A DNA stretch of 64,000 nt from an uncultured bacterium (GCA_964510105.1 CAZEAI010000003.1:31805-95804); one strand, 5' to 3'. Positions 7,395-21,733 are shown, counted from the stretch's first letter. Made by a program: numbers and translations. The notes: generated from the letters alone by a model not told the origin.

Positions 7395-9932
7395 TTACGT
7401 CGAACTGCGCAAGCAAGTAGTAGTAGCCTCGGGCTCCTGCGCGGCGAGCACCGGGTAGCTCGTCAGCGCGCGCCTGAGCCACGCGAATCGCCCCTCCTCG
7501 ATTGCGGCGACGATCCCGCGTTCGATCGAGTCCGCGCCGGGAATGCTCCGACCGGATTCGCGAACGTGTCGGAGAGCGTTAAGCGCCGCTTCGGCGTCCT
7601 GCTCTACCGCCTGACGCGCGTCGTCCGGGAGGGTGACGCGAGCCGACGTTGGGGCGTCGGTGCAGGCGCATGTGAACGACCGCAACTCGTACGAGCCAAG
7701 CTCGAAACGGGCGGCGGCATCGTCGATGGACTCTCCGCTGGCAAGATCGGTCAGCGCGCACGGTGAATTGCCGAGGGAGAGTTCCACCGTCGCTCCAACG
7801 TGGTCGCGATTCACCGCGTAGACGTATCGCTGTCCGTCGACAAGCGCCGTTCGCACTGCGACGGGATCGTTCGACGGGCCGACCTGCTTGAACTTGACGG
7901 CGGGCAGGGCCCGGTACGCCCGGGCGAACGCGGCGATCTCGCCAGTGTGCGCTTTGTCGAGGAATAGCCCGCCGCGCGTGATTTCCAGCGCGTCGAGTTC
8001 GGCCAGCGCGTGGGCGTATGGCTCCAGAAAGTGCTGTGGCGCGGGAAACGCGGGCGTGATACGCAGTTGGGAGTCCCACCAGAACCCATCGTCCGGGTAC
8101 TCGGAGTTGACGCGAAAGATGCCTTCCGCCGGCTCGCCGCCCATGACCGCCAGATCGCGGGCCTGATCGTCGTCGGCGTCCGCCGGGAACCACCGGTGTT
8201 TGCCCCACGCCTCGTGCCACGCGTTGAAGATGAACGCCGACGGCCGCTCCTGCGCCGCTACCGCGCGTAGGGTATCGCCATCGAGGTAGTCGTGGTCACG
8301 GTACATCGTGAACGCGGAGAGGGGTGCGTCCTCCTCAATGGAGGATCCGCGATCGCGGCCACCACCTTCGAGTTGAAGCGTCAACCGGATGCCCGACTCA
8401 TCCTCGTAGAGCGCCGGGTCTATGCCGCCCTCGCGGAACAGCTCGACATTGGTGGGGCGCGCGCCGAGCTGGTGCTCCGGGCCGCCGCTGCCAATCACGG
8501 CGGGGATAAACGGCTCGGACCAGAGGTCCAGCCCCAGCACGAGATCGCTCCGAACGCCGCGGAGTTCGTCGCGCAGCCCGCGCATAAGGTCGCGAACCTT
8601 CGCGCATCGCCACGCGATCCAGGCGGAGCGGCAACGGCTCGTCAGGAACTCGTATCGCGCCGCGAACCGCCCGGGATCACCATCCTCTCCGGGAACGCTG
8701 ACGCCCGTCTCCTGCTCGAACAGGGAGATCGTAAGATCGTCGTATCCGGTGCGAAGAGAGCCGAACCACGTAATCGCCGGCGCCCACATCGAGAGACGCA
8801 CACCGCGGAAAGCCTTGTACGATCCGTACCGCTCGGCGATCTCGCGAACCAGCCCACGGATCGCGTCCTGAACGGTGGGATGCAGGACGTTGAACATCGG
8901 CCCCACGGGATACGGCTGGCGCGTCTTCTCGCCATATGCGTACTGGAAATCCTTCGCGACGCCGACCGATTCGTCGTTCGCCACTAGCTCGTCGTAGTTC
9001 CGGACGTTGTACGTGGGTGTCCAGTCCTGCGTGCCCGCCTGAACATGCCCCGTGGACCGCACCGCGTTGATCGTCTCGGCTCCCGCGTCGACTGCCTGCT
9101 GATCGATGTTCATCCGCTCCATGAGGCTGCCCAGACGCAGGAGCGTCATCACGCCCTCAACCCCGACACCCGCGTCGCCGGCTCGATCAAGCATCATCGC
9201 GAACCAGTCCGCGGGCCGCGAAGTCCAGCGTACGTACTGCCTGCGGTCGGCGGCGACGACCATGTCGAAGTCGCTCACGGGCTCGCGCTCGGAGGGATAG
9301 TGCGGCCCGTGGTACCATACGATGGGGTAGGCGAGGAGATCCTGCCCCGAATGCCGGGCATACGTCAAAACGTTTTCCATCCACTCCTCGCGGCTCGCGG
9401 CGCCCTCGGCGGCGCCGGTTCCGCATGGATCCTCGTACTGAATTCCTATGGCCCGGCGAGGCGTGGCATAGTCCGGGGAGGGAGGCTCGAACGCCGGGAG
9501 ATCGTCGAGTTCGTACACCTCGATCGATGCGGCCGCCGCCGGCTCATCGTGGCCCCACGTCATGAAGACGACGCTGCAATCGGTCCATCGCGGCCAGAAG
9601 ACCTGGCGAACGGTTCGCATCCCGCCGCTGAGCGGATGAGCGAAGCCCGTGTGTACGCCCGTGGACAGATCGTATCCGGTGCCGTCCTGGATGCACATGA
9701 ACCGGCGACGATCGTCCGGGAATGTGATGACCAGCGCGTGCGGGCGCCCCGTCTCCCGGACGGCGAATCGGTAGCCGAACCGCGAGAGCGGGACCCCTTC
9801 GGCTTCCCGATACCGCCCCGCCGGGCCGTCGATAACGCGGACCGCGCCGTTCGCGAAACAGCGTTCGTGCCCGTACTCATCGGTGCAGTCGATCCGCTCA
9901 AGAAGGCGGCCCTCGGTGGTTGCGGGCATCAT
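7395..9932 (-). CDS. large (about 845 aa) hypothetical protein, putative cytoplasmic glycoside-hydrolase-like enzyme co-transcribed with two GH2 genes
   Basis: Long intact ORF; the probable start MMPATTEG at 9932 directly abuts the stop of the upstream GH2 gene. No signal peptide. No family recognised by eye. Confidence 0.5.
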   Translation of the reverse strand: MMPATTEGRLLERIDCTDEYGHERCFANGAVRVIDGPAGRYREAEGVPLSRFGYRFAVRETGRPHALVITFPDDRRRFMCIQDGTGYDLSTGVHTGFAHPLSGGMRTVRQVFWPRWTDCSVVFMTWGHDEPAAAASIEVYELDDLPAFEPPSPDYATPRRAIGIQYEDPCGTGAAEGAASREEWMENVLTYARHSGQDLLAYPIVWYHGPHYPSEREPVSDFDMVVAADRRQYVRWTSRPADWFAMMLDRAGDAGVGVEGVMTLLRLGSLMERMNIDQQAVDAGAETINAVRSTGHVQAGTQDWTPTYNVRNYDELVANDESVGVAKDFQYAYGEKTRQPYPVGPMFNVLHPTVQDAIRGLVREIAERYGSYKAFRGVRLSMWAPAITWFGSLRTGYDDLTISLFEQETGVSVPGEDGDPGRFAARYEFLTSRCRSAWIAWRCAKVRDLMRGLRDELRGVRSDLVLGLDLWSEPFIPAVIGSGGPEHQLGARPTNVELFREGGIDPALYEDESGIRLTLQLEGGGRDRGSSIEEDAPLSAFTMYRDHDYLDGDTLRAVAAQERPSAFIFNAWHEAWGKHRWFPADADDDQARDLAVMGGEPAEGIFRVNSEYPDDGFWWDSQLRITPAFPAPQHFLEPYAHALAELDALEITRGGLFLDKAHTGEIAAFARAYRALPAVKFKQVGPSNDPVAVRTALVDGQRYVYAVNRDHVGATVELSLGNSPCALTDLASGESIDDAAARFELGSYELRSFTCACTDAPTSARVTLPDDARQAVEQDAEAALNALRHVRESGRSIPGADSIERGIVAAIEEGRFAWLRRALTSYPVLAAQEPEATTTCLRSST

Positions 9933-11752
9933 TCGGACCACATCTTTCGCACCGCGTGCGCGGCGTCTTTGGGGCGCCGGTGGAAGTTGAACAGCCCGTA
10001 GCCGAGGTGATATTCGTACGACCAAAGGAAGCGGCGATGCACGTCGTAGTCGGCGAAGCACCAGATGAACCCGCCAATGACGTTCTCCTCGTCCTCAAAG
10101 GCCTCCCAGAACGCGCGAATCTTCGCCGACTGGAAGTACTCGCCGGGAGGATGGTCCGTCATCAAGCCGAACTTCGTCCACTCGCCGAACTCCGCCGCGA
10201 TGATGGGACGATTCGGTACCTGCGCCCGGAGCCCACGCATCTTCTCTCGCAGCCTCGCGACGGGCTGGTCGATGAACTCCGCGCGCGGCGGCTGAGGGCT
10301 GCCCACGTACACGTTTACCGCGCTGATGTCAGTGTGCTCGTGCACCGGGTCGTCCGGCCACTCGTTGCTGCACTCGACGACGGGACGGGTCGAATCGAGT
10401 TCGTGTGCCAGATCCACGAGTTCGACGTTCCCATCCACCGTCTGCTTGGCCAGCGCGACGGAGTCCGGGTCGTCAGGCTTGTGCGACTGCGTGAGGCTCT
10501 CGTTGCTCACGCTCCAGATGAATACGCAAGCATGATTCTTGTAGGTCTTGACGATCTCGCGAAGCTGACCCTTCGCCTGATCCAGCGCCGCCGGGTCGTC
10601 GGTCTCGACCAGCGGCCGGCCCCACTGCCAGAGCGGCACCTCGACCATGTTCAGGATGCCGCGCTCGTCGCACAACTCGTAGAAGCGGCGGTGGTTGGGA
10701 TAGTGGCAGCGCAACGCGTTCGCGCCGAGCCACTGCACGAGATCGAGGTCCGTCCCGAGCTTCGCCGCGTCATGCGTCCGTCCGCTGCCGGGATAGTCCT
10801 CGTGGCGGTTCACACCCTTGATGAAGAACGGTTCGCCGTTGAGCAGCAGCCTGCCACCGTCGACCTTGAATGTCCTGAGCCCGATTCGGTGCGACCACGA
10901 ATCGGCCACGCGATCGCCATCGCACAGCTCAATGCGCAAGTCGTATAGCTCGGGAGAGTCCGGCGTCCAGAGCGACGCATCCGGCACGTCGAAGCGCAGC
11001 TCGGCCCGCGCGGAGCCATCCTCGACGCGCAGCGCGTGGGCACGGACATCCGCCGGTATTTCGACGGGCATTCCCGCCGGGTCCACGAACATCGCAACGA
11101 TGTCCCGATCAGCCGGAGCGCTTGATTCGCTTCGTACATCGACCGAGACGCTCACCGATGCGGCGGCGCCGTCGATATCCGTAACGACGGTGACGTCATC
11201 GATCCACGTCGTGTCCGTGACGCGGAGTGAGACGTCGCGATACAGACCGCCGTGATTCCACCATCCGAACTGGCGCCCGGGCGCTCGGCTCGGCATGGGC
11301 AGGTTGTCCACAGCCACGGCGATGAGGTTGTCTTCACCGTACCGAAGCAGGTGATGCACCGGCATCTCGAACGGGTTGTACCCACCGTCGTGAGCGCCCG
11401 CGTATTCGCCGTTGACGTACACGACCGTGCGGTAGTTCGCGCCCTCGCTGTGGAACACGACCCGGCGACCCTCCCAACCCTTGGGTATCCGGATGGAGCG
11501 ACGGTACCAGCCGTTGCCCTCATAGCTCCATAGGTCGTCGATGGCGGCGTTCCAGCTTGCGGGCACCGGTATGTCGAGCCATTTGGCGTCGTCGAAGCCC
11601 TCGGCAATCCATCCGAGATGCTCGCCCGACATGGACACGACGTTCGGATTCGACGGATCGAAATCCGGATCCATCCACCGCTGGTCGGCGCTGATTTCGT
11701 CGAACGCAGGGCAGAAGCGCCACTGTCCGTTCAAACTCATTTCACTTCGCAT
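9929..11752 (-). CDS. glycoside hydrolase family 2 (beta-galactosidase/beta-glucuronidase-like)
   Basis: GH2 sugar-binding N-terminus (LNGQWRF...WYRR), GH2 TIM-barrel motifs (NALRCHYP, LCDERGILN, WSVSNE). No signal peptide. Confidence 0.8.
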   Translation of the reverse strand: MRSEMSLNGQWRFCPAFDEISADQRWMDPDFDPSNPNVVSMSGEHLGWIAEGFDDAKWLDIPVPASWNAAIDDLWSYEGNGWYRRSIRIPKGWEGRRVVFHSEGANYRTVVYVNGEYAGAHDGGYNPFEMPVHHLLRYGEDNLIAVAVDNLPMPSRAPGRQFGWWNHGGLYRDVSLRVTDTTWIDDVTVVTDIDGAAASVSVSVDVRSESSAPADRDIVAMFVDPAGMPVEIPADVRAHALRVEDGSARAELRFDVPDASLWTPDSPELYDLRIELCDGDRVADSWSHRIGLRTFKVDGGRLLLNGEPFFIKGVNRHEDYPGSGRTHDAAKLGTDLDLVQWLGANALRCHYPNHRRFYELCDERGILNMVEVPLWQWGRPLVETDDPAALDQAKGQLREIVKTYKNHACVFIWSVSNESLTQSHKPDDPDSVALAKQTVDGNVELVDLAHELDSTRPVVECSNEWPDDPVHEHTDISAVNVYVGSPQPPRAEFIDQPVARLREKMRGLRAQVPNRPIIAAEFGEWTKFGLMTDHPPGEYFQSAKIRAFWEAFEDEENVIGGFIWCFADYDVHRRFLWSYEYHLGYGLFNFHRRPKDAAHAVRKMWSE

Positions 11753-11776: not shown

Positions 11777-13639
11777 TCAGTCGCGGAAGGTTGGCAGCGC
11801 CGTCCAGACATCGTGCATGGTGTGTGCGCTCACCTTCGCGTTGCGATGGATATCGAACATGCCGTACGCGCAGCGGTACTCGTACACCCACAGGAAGCGC
11901 CGGTGCACGTCGGAGTCGGCGAACGCCCAGACGAAGCCGCCGATGACGTTGTCCTCCTCGAGCATGCCATCCCAGATCGCTTTGATGTTCGCGGCCTGGT
12001 ATTCCTCGCCGGGGAAGTAGTCCGTGCGCATGCCGCGAACTGCCCACGAACCCCATTCCGTCGCGAGGATCGGCTTGTCGGAGAGTTCCGTCCGCTGCTC
12101 GGCGATCTTGGCGCGCGCACGTTCGACGGTGTCGGGAAGCCCGCGCTCGTCATTCACGTTCGTGCCGACGTAGATGTTGATCGCAGTCACATCCGTGTGC
12201 TGGTGCACGGGATCACCGGGCCAGCAGTTGCTGACCTCCACGGCCGGGCGTGTGGGGTCGAGTTCGTGCGCGAGTTCGACAAGCTCGATGTTGCCGTCAG
12301 CGGTCTGCTTCGCCAGCGCCACGACCTCCGGATCATCCGAGCGCGGCACAACGAGGTTCTCGTTGCTCACGCTCCACATGAAGACGCTCGGGTGGTTCTT
12401 CAGAGCGCCGATGATCTCCGTAAGCTGGGCCTTCGCGGCCACCAGCGCGTCGGCGCTTGCCGTTTCGACGAGCGGCCTGCCCCACTGGTAGAGCGGTAGC
12501 TCGACGAGGTTCAGTATGCCGCGCTCGTCGCACAACTCGAAATGGCGCCGGTGCGGCGGGTAGTGACTCCGCAACGCATTCGCGCCGAGCCACTTCACCA
12601 GATCGAGGTCGCGGCTGAGCAACGCCTCGTCGTGCGTGTGCCCCGGACGTCCGTGCCCGGGGTTGTCGCCGGAGTAGTCCTCGTACCGGTTGATCCCCTT
12701 GATGAGGAGCGGTCGGCCGTTGAGCAGCAGCCTGGGGCCATCGACGCGTATCTCCCGCAGGCCGATGCGCATGCTCCACGTATCGCCGTTGTGCTCGTGC
12801 ATCGTGTCGTTGACGGTGAGGACGAGACGATAGAGATGCGGCTCATCCGGCGTCCAGAGCAGGGCGTCGGGCACCGGAAGATTGAGTTCCGCGGCAGCGT
12901 GTCCATCCGCCTCGGCGAGCATCTGCGAACGCGCCGTAGCCGGAAGCAACACGGGCTCACCGGCCGGGTCGAAGAGCTGCACGTCGATGGCGCGATTCGT
13001 TACTTTGCCGCCGTCGCACCTGGCGGTGACGCTCACGCCGACCGAGGCCCCGCCGTCCTCAAGTTTCGTGTCAACCGTCACGTCGTCGATATAGACATTG
13101 TCCGTAATTCGCAGCGACACATCGCGATAGAGCCCGCCGTGGTTCCACCAGTCGAACTGGCCGCCCGGCACGCGATCCTTCTTCGGCTGGTTATCGCACG
13201 AGACGGCGATGACGTTCTCCTCGCCGAATTTCAGCAACCGGTGAATCGGTATCGCGAACGGCGTGTAGCCACCTGAATGCTCGCCGGCTACCTGCCCGTT
13301 GACCGAGACCACGGTACGGTAGTTCGCGCCCTCGCTGAAGAACTCGACGCGCCGGCCTTCCCATTCTCTCGGGATCGCCACGACGCGCCGGAACCATCCG
13401 TGCCCCTCGTAGCTCCAGAGGTCCTCGAATTCGCTGTTCCAGCTTCCGGGAATGGTGATGTCCAGCCAACCGGAATCATCGAAATCGGGGCGCACCCACC
13501 CGATGTCGCCCTCGGTGACCGGCGTGAGATCGGGATTCGCCGGGTCGAAATCCGGATCGAGCCAACGCTGATCCGCACTGATCTGGTCGAACGCGGGACA
13601 GAATCTCCATCGACCGTTCAGGCTCATTTCGATGCGCAT
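11777..13639 (-). CDS. glycoside hydrolase family 2, tandem paralog of the downstream gene
   Basis: Close paralog (N-terminus MRIEMSLNGRWRFCPAFDQISADQRW versus MRSEMSLNGQWRFCPAFDEISADQRW; same motifs NALRSHYP, LCDERGILN, WSVSNE). Confidence 0.8.
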   Translation of the reverse strand: MRIEMSLNGRWRFCPAFDQISADQRWLDPDFDPANPDLTPVTEGDIGWVRPDFDDSGWLDITIPGSWNSEFEDLWSYEGHGWFRRVVAIPREWEGRRVEFFSEGANYRTVVSVNGQVAGEHSGGYTPFAIPIHRLLKFGEENVIAVSCDNQPKKDRVPGGQFDWWNHGGLYRDVSLRITDNVYIDDVTVDTKLEDGGASVGVSVTARCDGGKVTNRAIDVQLFDPAGEPVLLPATARSQMLAEADGHAAAELNLPVPDALLWTPDEPHLYRLVLTVNDTMHEHNGDTWSMRIGLREIRVDGPRLLLNGRPLLIKGINRYEDYSGDNPGHGRPGHTHDEALLSRDLDLVKWLGANALRSHYPPHRRHFELCDERGILNLVELPLYQWGRPLVETASADALVAAKAQLTEIIGALKNHPSVFMWSVSNENLVVPRSDDPEVVALAKQTADGNIELVELAHELDPTRPAVEVSNCWPGDPVHQHTDVTAINIYVGTNVNDERGLPDTVERARAKIAEQRTELSDKPILATEWGSWAVRGMRTDYFPGEEYQAANIKAIWDGMLEEDNVIGGFVWAFADSDVHRRFLWVYEYRCAYGMFDIHRNAKVSAHTMHDVWTALPTFRD

Positions 13640-13729: not shown

Positions 13730-14326
13730 TCAACGGGCGGCGGGCGGTTCTTCGAGAGAATCGGTGTGCACCAGAAACGTGACGATATTCCGACCGTACG
13801 TACGCTGGTCTCGCATGGCCAGCGATACAGGGGCGATGCCACCGTCGGTACCCTGCTCGTGGTGGTACACGAGCAACCCTGTGAGTTCGAGCAGGTCCCG
13901 AGCTATCGTGTCGGCAAGCTCGTCGAGCACACCGCGACGCTCCTCCGTCCCCAGTGGAAACGGCGGATCGAAAATCACGACGTCCGCGCGTTCGCCTTCT
14001 TGCGCAATCTGCCGAACCGCGGACGCAGCATCCGTGTTCAGGATGCGGGCGCGATCGGCGACGCGGGTGCGTTCGAGATTCCGCGCGATCGTCTGCGCGC
14101 AGTCGCGGTCGCGATCCACGAACGTGCAGAACGTCGCGCCCCGGCTCAGCGCCTCGATGCCGAGCCCGCCCGTCCCCGCGTAGATATCGATCACCCGTGC
14201 GCCGATCAGGCGCGGGTCGAGTATGCTGAAGACCGACGTCTTCACCCGGTCGGTCATCGACCGCGTCGTCGCGGCGCGAACCTCGTACAGCGGCACGCTT
14301 CGGGCAGTCCCCGCGATCACTCTCAT
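13730..14326 (-). CDS. rsmD: 16S rRNA (guanine966-N2)-methyltransferase RsmD
   Basis: MRVIAGTARS...VIDIYAGTGGLGIEALSRGA...VVIFDPPF motifs typical of RsmD-type N6/N2 MTases. About 198 aa from the internal ATG. Confidence 0.75.
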   Translation of the reverse strand: MRVIAGTARSVPLYEVRAATTRSMTDRVKTSVFSILDPRLIGARVIDIYAGTGGLGIEALSRGATFCTFVDRDRDCAQTIARNLERTRVADRARILNTDAASAVRQIAQEGERADVVIFDPPFPLGTEERRGVLDELADTIARDLLELTGLLVYHHEQGTDGGIAPVSLAMRDQRTYGRNIVTFLVHTDSLEEPPAAR

Positions 14327-14569
14327 CGAACGGATGCCCTGCATATAGTCCCGAACATTCCTTGCCTGCTCCCCGACATGCTGGTATCTTCTGTGGAACC
14401 CCAATCGGTTCCGGTTATTTCCCCATCATTGAAGAATGTAGTGAGGTCGCTCGGCGGAGGCACCCGTTCCTTCGACGGTTTCTCCGCGCGTCCGCGAATC
14501 CGACCTGACCGGATGTCGGAACGGTCCACGACCGTCTCCAGCCGAAAATGCGGATAGAAGGAGTATCAC

Positions 14570-15403
14570 ATGGGTTGTACACTCTTCTGGGAAGCTCAGG
14601 AATTCAGCGGACTTATGCAGGTTCGATGCCGCGACGAACTCATCGCGCTTGCCGAATCGGCCGGCTGGGAGTATGAGGTCACCGAGGACGTTTGGAAGGG
14701 CATCGCGGTGAACCTTAACGCCCGCCCGGAGCGCGCTCGGCCGTTTCGCGCGGAGCTCAGTACGATCGGCGTCACGATGTTCCCGTTCGGCCGCGGCGAG
14801 GATGACTCGCGCCCGCGCCTGCCGTTCGTGTTCGACAACACGACCCTGAACGACCCGGATCTGCGCAACCGCCTCATCACCATCGGCCCGGCGTCGTACT
14901 GGCGCGAGTGGATGCCGCGAGTGAAGAGCCAGTATCCGATTCTCGCCGACGACCGCGAGGAGCCCGTGTTCGGCATCCGCGGCGACGGGCACATGCGCGT
15001 CCGGCGCACTGAGCTACCGGGATTTATCAAGTTCCTGAACACATTGAAGGCCACGGCGCTGCCGCTGCTCGACATCCGCACCAGCGACCGTCTGGCTCGA
15101 AAAATGATCAACGATCCGAACCAGAACCCTCTCGGTCGAGGTGGTCAGCACCGCGTAATCGATCAGGCGACGCTCGACGAACTCGCCGAGGGCCTCGGCG
15201 TGCTGTTCAACGAGTCGAAGTTCGACGACTGGAAACTTGGCCTCGAAACGGAAGACGAGATGGAGCGCGAGCAGGCGAAAGCAAACCGCGCCGCGACGAT
15301 TCCGGACAGAGGCAGGGGGCCACGCGACGGTGGACGAGACACGGGACGAGACGGCGGGCGCGGCGGAGGCCGTGGGGTCTTCGGCGGACCGCGAGGATTC
15401 TGA
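14570..15403 (+). CDS. hypothetical protein with C-terminal RGG/RG-rich low-complexity tail
   Basis: Intact 277-aa ORF preceded by AGGAG. C-terminus DRGRGPRDGGRDTGRDGGRGGGRGVFGGPRGF. It is the first gene of the operon that continues into the polyamine genes. Confidence 0.45.
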   Translation: MGCTLFWEAQEFSGLMQVRCRDELIALAESAGWEYEVTEDVWKGIAVNLNARPERARPFRAELSTIGVTMFPFGRGEDDSRPRLPFVFDNTTLNDPDLRNRLITIGPASYWREWMPRVKSQYPILADDREEPVFGIRGDGHMRVRRTELPGFIKFLNTLKATALPLLDIRTSDRLARKMINDPNQNPLGRGGQHRVIDQATLDELAEGLGVLFNESKFDDWKLGLETEDEMEREQAKANRAATIPDRGRGPRDGGRDTGRDGGRGGGRGVFGGPRGF

Positions 15404-15416
15404 CGCAAGACCGCAG

Positions 15417-16592
15417 ATGACACCGACCGAGATCCTGGAAAGCGCCGCTGTCGGCGCTCGTGTGCGTGAGGGCGCGGAGGGCGTCCGGGCGGTGCTCCGC
15501 GCGGTGCACGTCGCCGGGACGATCGCCACTCGCGATCTCGCCCAATCCGCGAGGCTGCCGCTCCCCGTGGTGGCCGCGATACGAGGCGAACTCGCCAAGC
15601 TCGACGTCATCGAGAAGCGCCCGTCTGGCGCAGGTCTCACCCCGCGCGGGCAGCAACTCGCCGACGAGATGTTCGGAGAGTCGGCAAGCGTCCCGAACGC
15701 CGCGCATTCATCACCCGATGCACCCACCGACCTGCTCGCGAGAGTCCGCGACTTCACGTCCCAACGGCCCGACGCCGACACTACACTCGACCAGGCGAAG
15801 GCAACGCCCGAGACACTCGTTCGGCGGGTCGCCTACCTCGCATCCCACGACGCGCTTACTGGACGCCGCGTGCTCTGCCTCGGCGACGACGACTTCGTCA
15901 CCGGTGCGATTGTAGCATGGACGCAGCTTGAGTCCGATGCCGGGCGAAAGGCGAACCCGGATCGGCTGTGCGCGCTGGACATCGATCCGCGAATCGTATC
16001 CGCGCTCGCTGCACGGGACGGCGTCGAAGCGCACGTCTGGGACGCGCGCGATCCGGTGCCCGACGACCTACGCGGCGCGTTCGACGTGGTCGTTACCGAT
16101 CCGCCGTACACGCTGCCGGGAACGGAGCTGTTCCTCTCACGTGCCGCGGAGGCCGTCGGCGCGCGGCCGGGAACGCGCTGCTACTTCTCCTTCGGACACG
16201 TCGCGCCCCAGGACATGCGAGACATTCAGGCCGCGATGCTGGACATCGGCTGGATCGTGAGCGAGTGGACGCCCGCGTTCAACGAGTATGAAGGGGGCGG
16301 CCTAATCGCCGGTACGTCGCTCCTCGCGGAACTCGTCCTCGCGCCGGACGCGGAATCCATCGTCCCAGGGCATTACGAGGGCGATCTCTACACGTCCGAC
16401 GTGCGTCCAGCGATCTCGACCTACCGGTGCCGCGAGTGCGGTGCGCTCTGCGCCGTGGGTCCGGGCGCGCCGATTTCCACGATTGCCGATCTCAAACGTG
16501 CCGGCTGCTCCGAGTGCGGCGCCGACCGCTTCGTCCGCACGGGGCGGCGAACGGGTGGCGAGCAAGCAAGCGCCCAGGATAGCGCGTCGTGA
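15417..16592 (+). CDS. DUF43-family aminopropyltransferase-like protein (BpsA-like branched/long-chain polyamine synthase) with C-terminal CxxC...CxxC zinc ribbon
   Basis: Class I MTase-like core (RVLCLGDDDF...AFDVVVTDPPYT) characteristic of DUF43/BpsA. C-terminal YRCRECG...GCSECG. ATG at 15417 lies just after the upstream stop; the ORF-track N-extension from 15237 overlaps the upstream gene and is rejected. Confidence 0.55.
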   Translation: MTPTEILESAAVGARVREGAEGVRAVLRAVHVAGTIATRDLAQSARLPLPVVAAIRGELAKLDVIEKRPSGAGLTPRGQQLADEMFGESASVPNAAHSSPDAPTDLLARVRDFTSQRPDADTTLDQAKATPETLVRRVAYLASHDALTGRRVLCLGDDDFVTGAIVAWTQLESDAGRKANPDRLCALDIDPRIVSALAARDGVEAHVWDARDPVPDDLRGAFDVVVTDPPYTLPGTELFLSRAAEAVGARPGTRCYFSFGHVAPQDMRDIQAAMLDIGWIVSEWTPAFNEYEGGGLIAGTSLLAELVLAPDAESIVPGHYEGDLYTSDVRPAISTYRCRECGALCAVGPGAPISTIADLKRAGCSECGADRFVRTGRRTGGEQASAQDSAS

Positions 16593-16966
16593 CCCACGCG
16601 CCGATACACCTCCTTGCGGACTTCATCGTGCAGGATACCGACCTGCTCCACACGCCGGAGCCGGGCGTGCGACACCTCCGGGAGGCCGTCATCGCAGGCG
16701 GTGCCACGGTGCTCCAGCAGCACACGCATCAATTCGAGCCGCGCGGATACTCCGCCGTGCTGATGCTCGCCCAGTCGCATGCCAGCATCCACACGTGGCC
16801 GGAGGATTTTCTCATCTCCATCGACGTGTTCGGCTGCGGCCCGCTCGACCTCGACGCCGTCCTGGACTCGCTGCGTGAGCGGTATCAGCCCGACGCGGAG
16901 CGCACCGTCCGGCACGATCGCGCTGCGGCAGGCGTCACGAATCGTACCGTTCGTACCGACGCCTGA
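16589..16966 (+). CDS. speH: S-adenosylmethionine decarboxylase proenzyme, small pyruvoyl class (SpeH/SpeD-like)
   Basis: Diagnostic proenzyme processing-site motif QSHASIHTWPE (ESHxSIHTWPE). About 125 aa. GTG start overlaps the upstream stop (GTGA), suggesting translational coupling. Confidence 0.75.
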   Translation: MTHAPIHLLADFIVQDTDLLHTPEPGVRHLREAVIAGGATVLQQHTHQFEPRGYSAVLMLAQSHASIHTWPEDFLISIDVFGCGPLDLDAVLDSLRERYQPDAERTVRHDRAAAGVTNRTVRTDA

Positions 16967-16971
16967 GACCC

Positions 16972-17964
16972 ATGTCCGGCCCACTCTCCGAATCCACTGA
17001 ACTCGCAGGAGCGTCGTTCCATCCCATCGCACGCACCGATGTGGGGCGGCTGGTGCGCGCCGCTTCAGCCGCACAGACCTGGCTCTGGGCGGCGTACGGC
17101 CCATTCCTTGTCAGCTACGGACGTTCGCCCTCGCGCGCGGTGCTCATTGGTGAGATGGACGACGCGCTGGTCGTGCTGTTGCGGCGACGCATCCGCGGAC
17201 AGGGCCACGTCGATCTCATTGTCCCGCCGCTCGCCGCAGAGCCGCTCCCGGCTCTCACCCGCATCACCGATGCGCTCGCCGCGCACAATGGCGGTGAGCT
17301 GGAAACGCGGCTGCTCTGGGCGGACCTGCCCGCCGCCGCACTGCTGGCGGACAAGCCGGGCTGGCGCGTGACGCCGTACGAGCGCGAGTACCTGTACGAC
17401 CGCGACGCCGTGCTCGCCATGAGCGGGGGCGCGTTCCGGACCCTTCGCAAGCGCGTCAACCGGTGCGAGCGCGAAGCGTTCCCGCTCGTGCGCGACTACA
17501 CCGCCGCCGTCAGCGACGGTCGCACCGACCGCGACGCGTGCGCGGATCTGTTACGCGAGTGGCAGGACGTCCGCGAGCCTGTCGTCGAGCCGGTGTTCGA
17601 CTTCGGCTACACCATGGCCGCGTTGGACGTAGCGACGGAGATCGGCCCTCCGCACCTGACCGGGATCGTCGTCGAGGTCGACGCGCGGGTGCGGGCGTTC
17701 GCGTTCGGAGGCGTGCTGCGGGATGACGTCGCGTGCTTCTTCATCCTGAAGAGCGATCCGACGATTCACGGTCTCGCCGAGTTCGCGCGCGTGGGGCTCA
17801 TGCGACGTCTCGACGGCTGCCGGTACGTGAACGACGCCGGCGATCTCGGCCACGAGGGATTGGCGCGGCACAAGAGCGCGTTCCGCCCGGTGGGGTTCGT
17901 GCCGACGTGGAAGATGGGGTATTCCTGCGGGTGTCGCCCCGACACTCCGCAGGCTAACTCCTGA
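16972..17964 (+). CDS. DUF2156-like protein (MprF C-terminal aminoacyl-transferase-like fold), tentative
   Basis: About 330 aa. Segments (GGAFRTLRKRVNRCERE; FFILKSDPTIHGLAEF...HKSAFRP) resemble the DUF2156/LPG-synthase C-domain. Assigned from memory of family features. Confidence 0.4.
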   Translation: MSGPLSESTELAGASFHPIARTDVGRLVRAASAAQTWLWAAYGPFLVSYGRSPSRAVLIGEMDDALVVLLRRRIRGQGHVDLIVPPLAAEPLPALTRITDALAAHNGGELETRLLWADLPAAALLADKPGWRVTPYEREYLYDRDAVLAMSGGAFRTLRKRVNRCEREAFPLVRDYTAAVSDGRTDRDACADLLREWQDVREPVVEPVFDFGYTMAALDVATEIGPPHLTGIVVEVDARVRAFAFGGVLRDDVACFFILKSDPTIHGLAEFARVGLMRRLDGCRYVNDAGDLGHEGLARHKSAFRPVGFVPTWKMGYSCGCRPDTPQANS

Positions 17965-18373
17965 CGAAGAAGGCGCCAAGGGATGACACTACGACCGCTT
18001 GGGCCACCGCCAGACGAACACCGTATTCACGCATGACATCGAGAGACTGAACTGGCGCGAAGGCTTTCGACACGACGATGGCACCGACGAATAGCAAGTA
18101 TGCTAGCGACAGCACCAATGCTACCCAGAATAGGTACGAATTCACCTGCTTCCTCTGCTTCCTACGGTCTTGGAGATCTACGACCACAGCGCTTACCGTG
18201 AGGCTAAGCGTCGGCAGGATCGTCGCCAGCAACCAGTCCCACGCCTCCTCTGTTCTCTCGCCGTAGTGTCCTAGGTAGGTTCGCGTGAGTACAAGGGTCG
18301 CCAGCAGCAGGGCACCAACCAGCCAGGTTGTGACAAGGCGTTTCTCGCACTCTACTACGGGACGTTGTGCCAT
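17954..18373 (-). CDS. hypothetical small membrane protein (3-4 TM), third gene of the low-GC island operon
   Basis: ATG at 18373 (MAQRPVVE...). Hydrophobic helices TWLVGALLLATLVLT, LLATILPTLSLTVSAVVV, LFWVALVLSLAYLLFVGAIVV. Lower GC than its surroundings. Confidence 0.4.
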   Translation of the reverse strand: MAQRPVVECEKRLVTTWLVGALLLATLVLTRTYLGHYGERTEEAWDWLLATILPTLSLTVSAVVVDLQDRRKQRKQVNSYLFWVALVLSLAYLLFVGAIVVSKAFAPVQSLDVMREYGVRLAVAQAVVVSSLGAFFVRS

Positions 18374-18377
18374 CGCA

Positions 18378-19052
18378 TCACTCCATGAATGACCAGAGCC
18401 CAGCTCTCCGCAGATGGGTTCTTGCGGTGTAGTGGCTCGCAACCAACGCAGGTGTCTCGCCCGAAGGTGGCCTGCGGAAAACATAGACAAGAGCTACGCA
18501 TGCATGCTCCTCCGTGTACCTCTCGCTGGCGATAGTCCGCGGCAGTCTATTCAACCCTCCGTCAGACCATGATCCTGCCCTATCATACGACACCGGTGTT
18601 CGCTCTTGTGAGAAGGCATCCGAGGTCACGGCAAACACGAGGACACGGTAGTACCCGTTTGTCGCCGAGAAGAGTGCCCTGATATAATCCATCAGGGAGA
18701 AATCGTCATCTGACATGGGTGAGAGGTGCCATCGCTCGGGCTCGGGCTTTTTCGACGCATCCCCTCCGATTCTCTCCATTGGAGTCACAAGCGCGAATCC
18801 GCCCGGTACAATGTAGTAGTTGGCGCTGAAATACCCTGCGCCTTTCAGAGCGCCACGTAGCGCATCATCCACGTCCGACAATCGACAGTGGCTGCCGATG
18901 GAGGATCTGACGCTATCCAGCGTGACCGTTGCCACAGCGGACGCTACCGGCGGGGGCCAAGGGAATCTAGGGTATGGCCGGGCTTCGGTAGGCGAAGTAG
19001 CAGGCGGTTGGGGCTGCGCCATGCTAACATCCTCAGACACAGTATCGGGCAC
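18378..19052 (-). CDS. hypothetical protein, second gene of the low-GC island operon
   Basis: Intact 224-aa ORF 21 bp downstream of the DUF4062 gene and 5 bp upstream of the membrane-protein gene. No recognised domain. Confidence 0.4.
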   Translation of the reverse strand: MPDTVSEDVSMAQPQPPATSPTEARPYPRFPWPPPVASAVATVTLDSVRSSIGSHCRLSDVDDALRGALKGAGYFSANYYIVPGGFALVTPMERIGGDASKKPEPERWHLSPMSDDDFSLMDYIRALFSATNGYYRVLVFAVTSDAFSQERTPVSYDRAGSWSDGGLNRLPRTIASERYTEEHACVALVYVFRRPPSGETPALVASHYTARTHLRRAGLWSFME

Positions 19053-19073
19053 TTGCCCAGCAACGGGCGCAGA

Positions 19074-19838
19074 CTAGCGTGGACGGTACTGCCGACATGT
19101 CCTGAATAGCAGGACCCCACTCAGGATCGCCGCAGCAGCGACAGCGAAGAGGATTCCTGACCATCTCACTCGCCCCTCTTCGTACCACTCCCAGAACCAC
19201 ACAAGCAAGGCAGCTAGCACCGCCGCGCTCACCCAAAGCGCCGACATAGGCGCGCGCGCCCAGATGGCAAGAGCGATCGCTGCGGCGACGAGGACGGATA
19301 GAAGCGGGACGAGGACGTGTAGTAAGAGGACCGAGCGACGTGGGTCACAGACGGTCGCCCTCACCGTCCGTAGACGGCTCTGCTCCCAGTTGTGCAATGC
19401 TCGTGTAACTCGGCGCGAGAGATCGTCTGGTGTGCTGAACGCCTCACGAATCGACTCCCTGCTCACGCGGTTCCTGAAGGCACGTTGGCGGGCGCGGTAC
19501 TCGTCTGCTTCGACAAGCCCAGGTGGCATCGGGAAATCTTCGGGAGCAAGGAACATGAGGCGCGGAATACCAGCCGCGATAGCTTCATCATGTTCCCGTT
19601 CGGCATACGACGTTTCACTTCCGGCCGGGATGGCTCCGTACGTGTGGCCCAACACCCCAACGAATACGTCGCAGCCTGAGACGGCGGCATGATCGAACTC
19701 AGCAGCCCCCTGATCACGGGCACCGAAGTCCTCCATGCGTACACAGTGGTATCCGTCTATTCCCTCGATAGCAGCATAGACGGCCTCGCGGTACGCCGTG
19801 AGGTCGCGACCGGTGGAACTGAGGAAGACTGTCGTCAT
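19074..19838 (-). CDS. DUF4062 (TIR/nucleoside-deoxyribosyltransferase-clan) domain protein with three C-terminal transmembrane helices
   Basis: The N-terminus matches DUF4062 closely: TVFLSSTGRDLTAYREAVYAAIEGIDGYHCVRMEDFGARDQG...CDVFVGVLGHTYGAIPAGSETSYAEREHDEAIAAGIPRLMFL. ATG 19838 is preceded by AAGGAG at about 8 nt. The C-terminus carries three TM helices. Confidence 0.6.
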   Translation of the reverse strand: MTTVFLSSTGRDLTAYREAVYAAIEGIDGYHCVRMEDFGARDQGAAEFDHAAVSGCDVFVGVLGHTYGAIPAGSETSYAEREHDEAIAAGIPRLMFLAPEDFPMPPGLVEADEYRARQRAFRNRVSRESIREAFSTPDDLSRRVTRALHNWEQSRLRTVRATVCDPRRSVLLLHVLVPLLSVLVAAAIALAIWARAPMSALWVSAAVLAALLVWFWEWYEEGRVRWSGILFAVAAAAILSGVLLFRTCRQYRPR

Positions 19839-20002
19839 GTCCGGCTCCTTCACACATTTCCTTACCACGATTGTATCGCACGACGGATCGCGGAACAAGC
19901 CGTCACTCCACGTTCCGTCACACTTCTTTCGTATTGCCCCTCCCATCCCCCACCGTACCTTCTCTCCCCGTCCCTTCGCCACGCCTCGCACGGAGCCCGA
20001 CT

Positions 20003-21733
20003 ATGCCCGACACCCCGCGTCCCGAACACCCGCGTCCCGACCTGACACGCGACCGCTGGATCAACCTGAACGGCCGGTGGGAATTCGAACTCGACCCCGG
20101 CCTGTCAGGCGTCGCGCGCGGCCTGCCAGACGCTGCGCGTCTGGTAAGCGAGATCATCGTGCCGTTCTGCCCGGAGTCGCGGCTCAGCGGCGTGGAGAAC
20201 ACCGACTTCATGCCCGGCGTCTGGTACCGACGCACGTTCACCGTGCCGGAGGAGTGGAGCGAGATGCGTGTCATGCTGCGCTTCGAGGCGGTGGACTACC
20301 TCACGCAGGCATGGGTGAACGGGCAACACGTCGGGACGCATCGCGGCGGGTACACGCCGTTCGGATTCGACATCACGAGCGCACTCAAGCGCGGTGAGAA
20401 CGTGCTGATGGTCTTCGCGCAGGACGACACGCGGTCGCCGCTCCAGCCGTCGGGCAAGCAGTCGGAGCGGTACGAGTCGCACGGGTGCCACTACACGCGG
20501 ACGACGGGCATCTGGCAGACGGTATGGCTCGAGGCGGTGCCCGCTGCGCACGTCGAGCGGCTGCGCATCGTGCCGGTACCGGAGGCGGGCGTGATGCGGG
20601 TGGATGTCCACGCGGCGGGCGCGGCGTCGGGCGGCGAGGTGCGTCTGCACGTGCAGGCCGAGGGCGAGACGGTCGCGGACGTCACGGGGCGAATGCAGGG
20701 CGGTGTCGCGCTCATGGGATGCCATGTGCCTGACGTCCACTTGTGGACGCCGGAAGACCCGTTCCTCTACGACGTTGCGGTCACGCTCACGGGGCGAGAC
20801 GGCACGCGCGATGAAGTCCGCAGCTACGCAGGCATGCGCGACCTCGGCATCGACGGTCCCGCGCTGCTGCTCAACGGGAAGCCGAAGTTCCAGCGGCTCG
20901 TGCTCGATCAGGGCTTCTACCCCGAAGGCATCTACACCGCGCCCACCGACGACGACCTGCGCAACGACATCGAGATATCGAAGGGTCTCGGCTTCGATGG
21001 CGCGCGCCTGCACATGCGGGTGTTCGAGCGGCGCACGCTCTACTGGGCGGACAAGCTCGGATACCTCGTCTGGGACGAGTTCCCGAACTGGGGTCTCGAC
21101 TTGCGCGATCCCGCCGCGCTGGCCCGCGTTCACGAGGAATGGTCGGAGGTGCTGGAGCGCGACATGAATCACCCGTCGATCGTCGGGTGGTGCCCGTTCA
21201 ACGAGACGGCGACTAGTCAGGACCCCGACACGCTCCGCGCGATCTACCGCGCGACGAAGCTCGCCGATCCGACGCGTCCCTGCATCGATACGTCGGGCTA
21301 CGTGCACACGGAGTCGACCGACGTTTACGACTGCCACTGTTACGAGCAGGACGTGCAGAAATTCGCCGAGCGCTTCGAGGCCATGTCCGACGGCGGCGAC
21401 GCATGGTACAACTTCCCCGAGAACGACGTGCCGTGGCAGGGCCAGCCGTATTTCGTCAGCGAGTACGGCGGCATCTGGTGGAACCCCGGGCAGGCGGGCG
21501 ATGCAGACTGGGGATACGGCGAGCGCCCGAGGTCGGCGCAGGAGTTCATCGAGCGTTACCGGGGCCTCTCCGAGGCGTTGCTGCGGCATCCGAAGATGTG
21601 CGGCTTCTGCTACACGCAGCTCACCGACGTGGAGCAGGAGGTAAACGGCCTGTATACGTACGACCGGAAGCCCAAGTTCGACCCGGCGATCATTCGGGAG
21701 ATCAACCAGCAACCGGCGGCGATCGAGGCGTAA
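20003..21733 (+). CDS. glycoside hydrolase family 2 (third GH2 in the window)
   Basis: WINLNGRWEF N-terminus, GH2 core (GGYTPFGFDIT, MRDLGIDGPALLLNGKP, FNETATS). The internal ATG at 20003 (MPDTPRPEH) is chosen over the 19871 extension. Confidence 0.75.
   Translation: MPDTPRPEHPRPDLTRDRWINLNGRWEFELDPGLSGVARGLPDAARLVSEIIVPFCPESRLSGVENTDFMPGVWYRRTFTVPEEWSEMRVMLRFEAVDYLTQAWVNGQHVGTHRGGYTPFGFDITSALKRGENVLMVFAQDDTRSPLQPSGKQSERYESHGCHYTRTTGIWQTVWLEAVPAAHVERLRIVPVPEAGVMRVDVHAAGAASGGEVRLHVQAEGETVADVTGRMQGGVALMGCHVPDVHLWTPEDPFLYDVAVTLTGRDGTRDEVRSYAGMRDLGIDGPALLLNGKPKFQRLVLDQGFYPEGIYTAPTDDDLRNDIEISKGLGFDGARLHMRVFERRTLYWADKLGYLVWDEFPNWGLDLRDPAALARVHEEWSEVLERDMNHPSIVGWCPFNETATSQDPDTLRAIYRATKLADPTRPCIDTSGYVHTESTDVYDCHCYEQDVQKFAERFEAMSDGGDAWYNFPENDVPWQGQPYFVSEYGGIWWNPGQAGDADWGYGERPRSAQEFIERYRGLSEALLRHPKMCGFCYTQLTDVEQEVNGLYTYDRKPKFDPAIIREINQQPAAIEA

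Follow-up and report, generated by a model that had tools for sequence, protein, structure and literature searches.

Within a 64,000 nucleotide stretch of DNA from an uncultured bacterium (GCA_964510105.1 CAZEAI010000003.1:31805-95804; here called the window, whose numbering is used throughout), four genes, g1 to g4, occupy positions 14570-17964 on the + strand and encode, in order, a protein without known family, a DUF43 (BpsA_C) enzyme, a small pyruvoyl S-adenosylmethionine decarboxylase (AdoMetDC) homologue, and a stand-alone DUF2156 transferase. The reading we favour, and which we put at about an even chance of being right, is that this operon is a self-contained module for aminopropylation and then aminoacylation of a small amine. 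In this pathway g3 would decarboxylate S-adenosylmethionine (SAM) to give decarboxylated SAM (dcSAM), g2 would use dcSAM to aminopropylate an acceptor amine (most likely one of the common di- or polyamines) and release methylthioadenosine (MTA), and g4 would place an aminoacyl group, most likely taken from aminoacyl-tRNA, on an amine of the same molecule. The predicted product is an N-aminoacyl-(aminopropyl)amine, and g1 would be a lineage-specific accessory whose tail binds polyanions. The pathway is built directly on the identities of domains, the conservation of motifs, the order of the genes, their fusions and their phyletic co-occurrence, and from these the use of dcSAM and of aminoacyl-tRNA, the small-molecule acceptor, the order of the transfers and the identity of the amino acid are predicted. 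An initial annotation of this DNA had proposed further aminoacylation or acylation of a polyamine, and this remains the best, if putative, reading, with a gene fusion described below indicating that the DUF43 and DUF2156 proteins act together.

The four open reading frames (ORFs) are packed with hardly any spacing between them. Gene g1 (14570-15403; 277 aa) is preceded by an AAGGAG Shine-Dalgarno sequence. The mechanically called ORF of g2 opens at a TTG codon at 15237, giving an overlap with g1; its homologues point instead to a start at the ATG at 15417, 13 nt past the g1 stop codon, and to a product of 391 aa (15417-16592). Gene g3 (16589-16966; 125 aa) has a GTG start, and the sequence GTGA at 16589-16592 is common to the g2 stop and the g3 start. 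Gene g4 (16972-17964; 330 aa) begins 5 nt beyond the g3 stop codon, and a convergent ORF on the − strand begins where g4 ends (17964). The operon limits, the coupling of g2 to g3, the QSHASIHTWPE motif of g3 and the domain identities given in the initial annotation all stand, with the start of g2 alone corrected. Hidden Markov model searches return BpsA_C for g2 (PF01861; E = 9e-38, 130 bits versus a cutoff of 27), AdoMet_dc for g3 (PF02675; E = 1e-24, 87 bits versus 25) and LPG_synthase_C for g4 (PF09924; E = 5e-19, 68.9 bits versus 27.5, over profile positions 40-293 of 298). Scanning the window with Rfam and for tRNAs returned nothing, and hence gave no riboswitch or tRNA clue.

The arrangement is not due to chance, because the order g1-like, BpsA_C, AdoMet_dc, LPG_synthase_C recurs at 39-55% identity in independent contigs and metagenome-assembled genomes, which bears out the synteny on which the initial annotation depended. 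The full four-gene order is present in the contig encoding relative P0006 and in loci L001, L002/L003 (Latescibacterota) and L093; L004 has the BpsA_C, AdoMet_dc and LPG_synthase_C genes without g1, and overlaps of stop and start codons recur in these syntenic loci. The wider family was surveyed in a scan of one genome per species, in which 448 loci encode relatives of g2 and the best 80 of the 448 were examined by calling ORFs within 4 kb of the DUF43 gene and searching them with profiles built from the sequences of this analysis. The genome of the window is not itself one of these species representatives; the best match to g2 in the scan shares 50% identity over the whole protein, and the 80 loci span the Latescibacterota, Chloroflexia, Actinomycetota, Alphaproteobacteria, Binatia, Bathyarchaeia and Heimdallarchaeia. 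An AdoMetDC homologue is found in 57 of the 80 neighbourhoods, and an acyltransferase of some type is adjacent or fused to the DUF43 gene in 49. DUF2156 genes are present in 11 loci, GNAT genes in 38 (10 of them as DUF43 fusions; the GNAT counts rest on a profile built from domain envelopes), FkbH-domain proteins in 22, phosphopantetheine carrier proteins in 16, and g1 in four. The initial annotation had treated the four genes as a unit, and co-occurrence supports this for the decarboxylase and the DUF2156 gene, together with a DUF43-DUF2156 fusion, but not for g1. In a neighbour-joining tree (drawn without support values) the DUF2156-linked DUF43 genes, including that fusion, form a single subclade. 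Tight packing with the GTGA overlap, the conserved DUF43-AdoMetDC-DUF2156 order and this single subclade are what lead us to read the genes as one pathway.

The fusion is in locus L049 (4924-8492), where an MTA phosphorylase gene (TIGR01694; 297 bits versus a cutoff of 274.85), a single ORF of 702 aa containing BpsA_C, a zinc ribbon and LPG_synthase_C, and an AdoMetDC homologue lie in a row. MTA is the by-product of aminopropyl transfer, and the phosphorylase beside the fusion thus fits dcSAM chemistry. A second type of fusion, DUF43-zinc ribbon-GNAT (about 540-580 aa), is seen at L041:1159-2832, L083:5926-7671 and eight more Bathyarchaeia loci, and in each case an AdoMetDC homologue follows it. 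A parallel sister cluster has the order DUF43 (with zinc ribbon), GNAT, AdoMetDC, FkbH-domain protein (TIGR01686) and phosphopantetheine carrier protein, and occurs at L006:6001-9499, L007:5535-9021 and many of the loci L014-L088, in Chloroflexia, Streptosporangiaceae, Binatia and some Alphaproteobacteria. The GNAT, FkbH and carrier protein (PP-binding) assignments and the DUF43-GNAT fusions are all confirmed by Pfam and NCBIfam. A functional link between g2 and an acyltransferase is supported by the two types of fusion, the 49 loci with an adjacent or fused acyltransferase, and the parallel sister cluster. The gene content of the sister cluster suggests acylation from a carrier-protein thioester, possibly a glyceryl group by analogy, and the sister architectures would follow the same two-step logic with other donors, namely acetyl- or acyl-coenzyme A (CoA) through a GNAT, or an FkbH-loaded carrier-protein thioester. 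Given the neighbourhood counts, the operon in the window is a rare variant of a common theme, in which a DUF43 enzyme is accompanied by its own decarboxylase and an N-acyltransferase served by one of several donor systems. The sister cluster is not described in the literature searched.

Among the partner proteins of these loci, the GNATs give generic sequence matches in the PDB, with NATA1, PaiA, SSAT2 and SpeG appearing weakly among N-terminal acetyltransferases. The 315-aa gene of the actinobacterial variant was considered as an amino acid:carrier-protein ligase and rejected, as it encodes an FkbH-domain protein (TIGR01686). We also note that in complete Latescibacterota genomes with DUF43 and DUF2156 genes but neither g1 nor an adjacent AdoMetDC (such as L064:4289-5984), ORFs of 197 and 362 aa without known family lie directly upstream of the DUF43 gene, and a CCA-adding/poly(A) polymerase-type gene is present farther upstream.

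The g2 product, a putative dcSAM-dependent aminopropyltransferase, consists of an N-terminal winged-helix-like domain, a Rossmann domain and a C-terminal zinc ribbon. It aligns to the BpsA enzymes (EC 2.5.1.128) of Thermococcus kodakarensis (Tk; TK1691, PDB 5xnc, E = 4.8e-24) and Thermus thermophilus (Tth; 6j27), with which it shares PF01861, the winged-helix-like and Rossmann domains and a pairing with dcSAM supply. In a 24-member alignment of the g2 family the GDDD motif (G156-D159; 15882-15893) is invariant and aligns to the LGDDD of Tk-BpsA, and in BpsA these residues, G157-D160, position the aminopropyl amine of dcSAM (PMC12979288). At the ribose and adenine positions g2 keeps the acidic residues of DID and D209, and it also retains Asp in TDPP (Tk Asp225) and Tyr in FNEY (Tk Tyr290). 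The profile and pairwise alignments of g2 with BpsA end at FNEY. Of the acceptor-activating residues of Tk-BpsA, Asp225 and Tyr290 are aligned and conserved, Glu259 falls in an alignment gap, and Tyr316 lies past the alignable region. The cofactor use proposed for g2 and g3 rests on these conserved residues together with the Ser63, His68 and Cys83 of g3 described below.

A simpler relationship is that g2 and g3 are a plain BpsA/SpeD pair for the synthesis of branched-chain polyamines, as known from Thermus and Thermococcus, with g1 and g4 as unrelated neighbours. The initial annotation had likewise equated the DUF43 protein with BpsA and so expected a branched or long polyamine; the BpsA_C domain and the GDDD motif fit this, and some g2 homologues are labelled 'N4-bis(aminopropyl)spermidine synthase' by JGI and NCBI. 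However, the Tk, Pyrococcus (Pf) and Tth BpsA fall outside the clade formed by g2 and all 80 loci in the neighbour-joining tree, which was built on the shared region. The DPPYT motif of g2 (D228-T232; 16098-16112) stands in the place of DPPET in Tk and Pf BpsA and of DPVEG in Tth BpsA; throughout the family alignment its D228, P230, Y231 and T232 do not vary, and P229 is nearly invariant. The flexible cluster of acidic residues at the C-terminus of BpsA (E339, D342-E345; the DEE motif) carries the aminopropyl group in a ping-pong mechanism (PMC12979288), and in g2 it is replaced by a CxxC...CxxC zinc ribbon (Y336-x-C338-x2-C341 ... C364-x2-C367 ... F372; 16422-16532). In this ribbon Y336, C338, C364, C367 and F372 are invariant and C341 nearly so, relatives of g2 give Pfam Zn_ribbon_8 matches below threshold, and an LYT motif is also kept in the C-terminal part. 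Orthologues of bpsA are confined to thermophiles according to a 2026 review, whereas the g2 clade is found across many lineages not known as thermophiles, with carriers including Aurantimonas, Aureimonas sp. Leaf454, Streptosporangiaceae, Latescibacterota, Binatia, Bathyarchaeia and Heimdallarchaeia. Nor is g4 a chance neighbour, as the DUF2156 and GNAT fusions and the conserved synteny show, and the habitual linkage or fusion to an acyltransferase is a further difference from BpsA. Because of the tree placement, the DPPYT motif, the missing acidic carrier and the occurrence outside thermophiles, g2 is, judged by its sequence, not a BpsA orthologue and belongs to a separate, widespread zinc-ribbon clade. 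The BpsA catalytic residues expected of g2 are kept in part, the GDDD motif, Asp225 and Tyr290 being present but the acidic carrier cluster absent; the g2 data give no specific support for a branched or long-chain product, and we regard the plain BpsA pathway as very improbable.

The g3 product matches the small AdoMetDC structures 2iii and 1tlu in the PDB (E about 1e-15). Its QSHASIHTWPE motif (16772-16804) contains Ser63 (QSH) and His68 (IHTWPE), and Cys83 follows in FGCG, all with numbering identical to that of the Thermotoga maritima enzyme. In T. maritima SpeD, Ser63 is the pyruvoyl precursor, Ser63, His68 and Cys83 serve self-processing and catalysis, and His68 is catalytic (PMC10407285). 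On this alignment g3 is a class-1b pyruvoyl decarboxylase (SpeD homologue) with every processing residue present. Two features of the context favour SAM as the substrate: the decarboxylase is paired almost constantly with a GDDD enzyme, and in L049 an MTA phosphorylase lies next to the fusion.

Assignment of g4 as a DUF2156 protein resembling the C-terminal part of MprF, as first annotated, agrees with the PF09924 match, with a sequence match to the Bacteroides DUF2156 protein 2hqy (E = 1e-8) and with matches to the MprF synthase fold. The AlphaFold2 model of g4 (mean predicted local distance difference test score, pLDDT, 90.8; predicted template modelling score, pTM, 0.88) is a double-GNAT fold. 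The best solved matches of this model in Foldseek searches include 2hqy (1e-17; template modelling score 0.74-0.81), the synthase domains of MprF (alanyl-phosphatidylglycerol synthase 4v34 at 1e-12, lysyl-phosphatidylglycerol synthase, 5vrv and full-length MprF; 1e-12 to 8e-9), the aminoacyl-tRNA-dependent peptide synthases Sbb17 and Sba18 (5e-11 to 1e-10 together, with Sbb17, 9wqx, at 5e-11), which were solved with streptothrisamine, and FemX (2e-8). In DUF2156 transferases the two GNAT halves are split by the alpha(+) helix, which carries positive charge and binds aminoacyl-tRNA (PMC7334510). In the g4 model a helix of residues 153-169 (GAFRTLRKRVNRCEREA; 17428-17478) lies between the GNAT halves and matches the alpha(+) helix in position and charge; R159, K160, R164 and R167 are invariant in the family, and R156 and R161 nearly so. 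The function-described DUF2156-type enzymes in the literature consulted (MprF, ErdS, VlmA) all use aminoacyl-tRNA. From these fold matches, the conserved basic helix and the known donors of DUF2156-type enzymes, we infer that g4 probably takes its aminoacyl donor from aminoacyl-tRNA.

What g4 acylates is a separate question, and its MprF-like fold raises the option that it is a lipid aminoacyl transferase, with the polyamine genes modifying the same head group or merely co-regulated. Membership of PF09924 and the presence of MprF synthase domains among the best fold matches agree with this, but g4 has neither a membrane nor a flippase domain and is therefore not an MprF; its DUF2156 domain is fused to a soluble DUF43 enzyme in L049, and small soluble GNATs take its place in the sister clusters. 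Moreover, a DUF2156-like fold has been seen with a soluble small molecule (Sbb17 with streptothrisamine), and Orf11, a Gly-tRNA-dependent GNAT-fold enzyme, converts streptothrisamine to glycylthricin, so that a soluble small molecule can serve as acceptor. We therefore think a lipid target distinctly unlikely.

Several observations weigh against the aminopropylation and aminoacylation pathway. DPPY marks out enzymes that act on macromolecules by alkylating their exocyclic or amide nitrogens, and the acceptor of g2 is therefore perhaps not a polyamine. A conserved DEE cluster was sought in the approximately 100 C-terminal residues of g2 and is absent, with the zinc ribbon there instead, and the mechanism may differ from that of BpsA. 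The g3 match to TIGR03330 passes only marginally (77.0 bits versus a cutoff of 75.65, a margin of 1.4 bits), in the g3 subclade the cleavage site reads QSH in place of ESH, so that Gln precedes the cleaved Ser, and small SpeD homologues have repeatedly become ornithine or arginine decarboxylases (PMC10407285). Five Latescibacterota loci contain DUF43 and DUF2156 genes with no adjacent AdoMetDC, and in L094 (3863-5975) a HAD hydrolase gene is followed by AdoMet_dc and LPG_synthase_C genes that overlap by 4 nt, with no DUF43 or g1 gene nearby, so that the decarboxylase and DUF2156 genes can be paired where no DUF43 lies next to them. Finally, the acetyl-CoA-binding tandem GNAT 2wpw is among the fold matches of g4 (1.6e-10), and g4, with an isoelectric point of about 6.2, is not notably basic overall.

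The last two points fit a version of the same pathway in which g4 is independent of tRNA and uses acyl-CoA or a different thioester as donor, so that the aminopropylated amine would end up N-acylated, for example N-acetylated. The sister architectures, which use an ordinary GNAT either fused or with the FkbH and carrier-protein donor system, also favour it. Against this, the top fold matches of g4 are DUF2156 or aminoacyl-tRNA-dependent enzymes, its conserved basic inter-domain helix corresponds to the alpha(+) helix that binds aminoacyl-tRNA, and the R/Q-x-x-G-x-G/A motif for CoA binding is not seen in the second GNAT half when the sequence is read by eye alone. We consider a CoA- or thioester-dependent g4 possible, although the less probable form of the pathway. 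Isoelectric point was dropped as a proxy for tRNA binding by g4, since values in the family span 5.1 to 8.6 and do not discriminate.

A more complex picture is presented by g1, which has no match in Pfam or NCBIfam. Its 16 close homologues have a mean column identity of 65%, and its model (pLDDT 84) has an alpha/beta core, a long acidic helix (TEDEMEREQ) that includes an invariant acidic stretch, and an Arg/Gly-rich tail that is disordered. Of the 34 residues of the tail (244-277; 15299-15400), 8 are Arg and 14 are Gly, and the tail has an isoelectric point of 11.8 and pLDDT below 50; its composition is conserved among the homologues and its sequence is not. The conserved N-terminus, MGCTLFWEAQEFS (MGCTLFW), falls in the first strand of the core. 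A structural search with the g1 model gave no convincing relative, and among 1.8 billion representatives a profile search recovered no more than seven distant relatives. These belong to a broader family akin to the g1 core (P0075-P0081; L089, L091 and L092), in which every member begins with MGCD(I/V/A/L/F)(F/W/R)W, so that the N-terminal Gly-Cys is invariant. One of these, P0076, carries a fused RNA polymerase alpha C-terminal domain, and another, P0081, is 740 aa long. The contig of P0075, at 919 bp, is too short for its neighbourhood to be judged; the contigs of judgeable length carry small hypothetical genes and transposases, and no DUF43 or polyamine genes. The distant relatives were accordingly rejected as a clue to the function of g1, given their unrelated gene contexts. 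The upstream gene with an RG-rich tail that the initial annotation included in its scheme is real and conserved, but accompanies only 4 of the 11 DUF2156-linked loci; for this reason, and because its distant relatives are in unrelated contexts, g1 is a lineage-specific accessory, and neither a core part of the system nor its obligatory target. It could possibly bind a polyanion or nucleic acid.

The tail of g1 and the DPPY motif of g2 bring in a macromolecular target, with g2 aminopropylating a nitrogen, exocyclic or amide, in a nucleic acid or protein, g4 aminoacylating the product, and the g1 tail providing targeting. Consistent with this are the invariant DPPY(T) and the winged-helix and zinc-ribbon modules of g2, weak Pfam matches to N6-adenine and RsmD-type methyltransferases, and the RNA polymerase alpha fusion of a distant g1 relative. 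In addition, hypermodification of DNA at adenine by a tRNA-dependent enzyme has been published (PMC13219725). However, BpsA shares the winged-helix-like N-terminal domain and acts on free polyamines, most DUF2156-linked loci lack g1, and the distant g1 relatives are not linked to DUF43. The FkbH, carrier protein and GNAT of the sister clusters follow a small-molecule logic, and restriction, phage and RNA-modification genes are not consistently nearby. On balance a macromolecular target is unlikely. A specific form of it, in which the DPPY-type DUF43 enzyme would aminopropylate an exocyclic or amide nitrogen in DNA, RNA or protein with dcSAM, the DUF2156 enzyme would aminoacylate the new primary amine from aminoacyl-tRNA, and g1 would recruit them to nucleic acid, seems to us a little less probable again. 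A weaker variant still is that the invariant acidic helix of g1 (TEDExERE) might supply in trans the aminopropyl-carrier function of the BpsA C-terminus.

Comparisons with characterized systems place the aminopropylation and aminoacylation pathway in context. Classical speD-speE operons resemble the g3-g2 pair in that a small pyruvoyl AdoMetDC is translationally coupled to an aminopropyltransferase that uses its product, and differ in that the transferase here is a DUF43 protein rather than SpeE and an acyltransferase belongs to the unit. Gene g4 shares PF09924, the double-GNAT fold and a positive inter-GNAT helix with the MprF synthase domain (4v34, 4v36) and the fungal ErdS/ErgS. Unlike these, it carries neither a membrane or flippase domain nor a fused aminoacyl-tRNA synthetase; it is partnered by enzymes of polyamine rather than lipid type, and its predicted acceptor is a soluble amine (an amide bond) rather than a lipid hydroxyl (an ester). 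Closer in architecture are Orf11/Sbb17/Sba18, VlmA, PacB and DhpH/DhpK, soluble double-GNAT proteins that move an aminoacyl group from tRNA to a small molecule, although the sequence identity of these natural-product transferases to g4 is about 18%, they are in actinomycete antibiotic clusters, and none is reported with an aminopropyltransferase or AdoMetDC. N-acylation of polyamine amines is carried out by SpeG/SSAT/PaiA acetyltransferases, glutathionylspermidine synthetase and the gamma-glutamylpolyamine synthetase PuuA, which use acetyl-CoA or ATP-dependent ligation rather than aminoacyl-tRNA, and are generally catabolic or homeostatic and not part of biosynthetic operons.

Each enzyme of the operon thus comes from a known superfamily, and it is the combination and the predicted product that are new. 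A full-text search for literature linking DUF2156 with polyamines found none, though its coverage is incomplete and this is absence of evidence only. The titles and abstracts of the DUF2156 literature contain no apparent description of this cluster, and the DUF43, PF01861 and BpsA literature, within similarly incomplete coverage, contains nothing on it. If correct, the pathway would represent the first case in which a polyamine-type amine is aminoacylated in a tRNA-dependent way; its products would form a new class of small cationic metabolite, charged tRNA would gain a new role outside translation, and DUF43 could not be viewed any longer as just the branched-polyamine enzyme of thermophiles. 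The g2 clade would couple a dedicated dcSAM supply to three acyl-donor systems: aminoacyl-tRNA with DUF2156, GNAT, and FkbH with carrier protein and GNAT. Because the sister architecture has cultured carriers (Aurantimonas marina and Aureimonas sp. Leaf454), the chemistry of the clade is directly testable.

Among the surroundings of the operon, we note a terminator-like hairpin at 14394-14413 (+), with a 7 bp stem and a T-rich tail, between g1 and the divergently transcribed rsmD (13730-14404, −). Three glycoside hydrolase family 2 (GH2) genes flank the operon, at 9929-11752 (−), 11777-13639 (−) and 19871-21733 (+); the first two are tandem paralogues with near-identical N-termini, and an 888-aa ORF without a Pfam match is present at 7395-10061 (−). 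Between g4 and the rightmost GH2 gene is a region on the − strand (17954-19991) containing ORFs for a 178-aa membrane-like protein, a 224-aa protein without known family and a 305-aa DUF4062 protein (E = 1e-16), with a GC content of 0.597 compared with about 0.65. In the contig of relative P0006 and in L001 the GH2 gene directly follows the DUF2156 gene, and the three-ORF region in the window therefore looks like an insertion.

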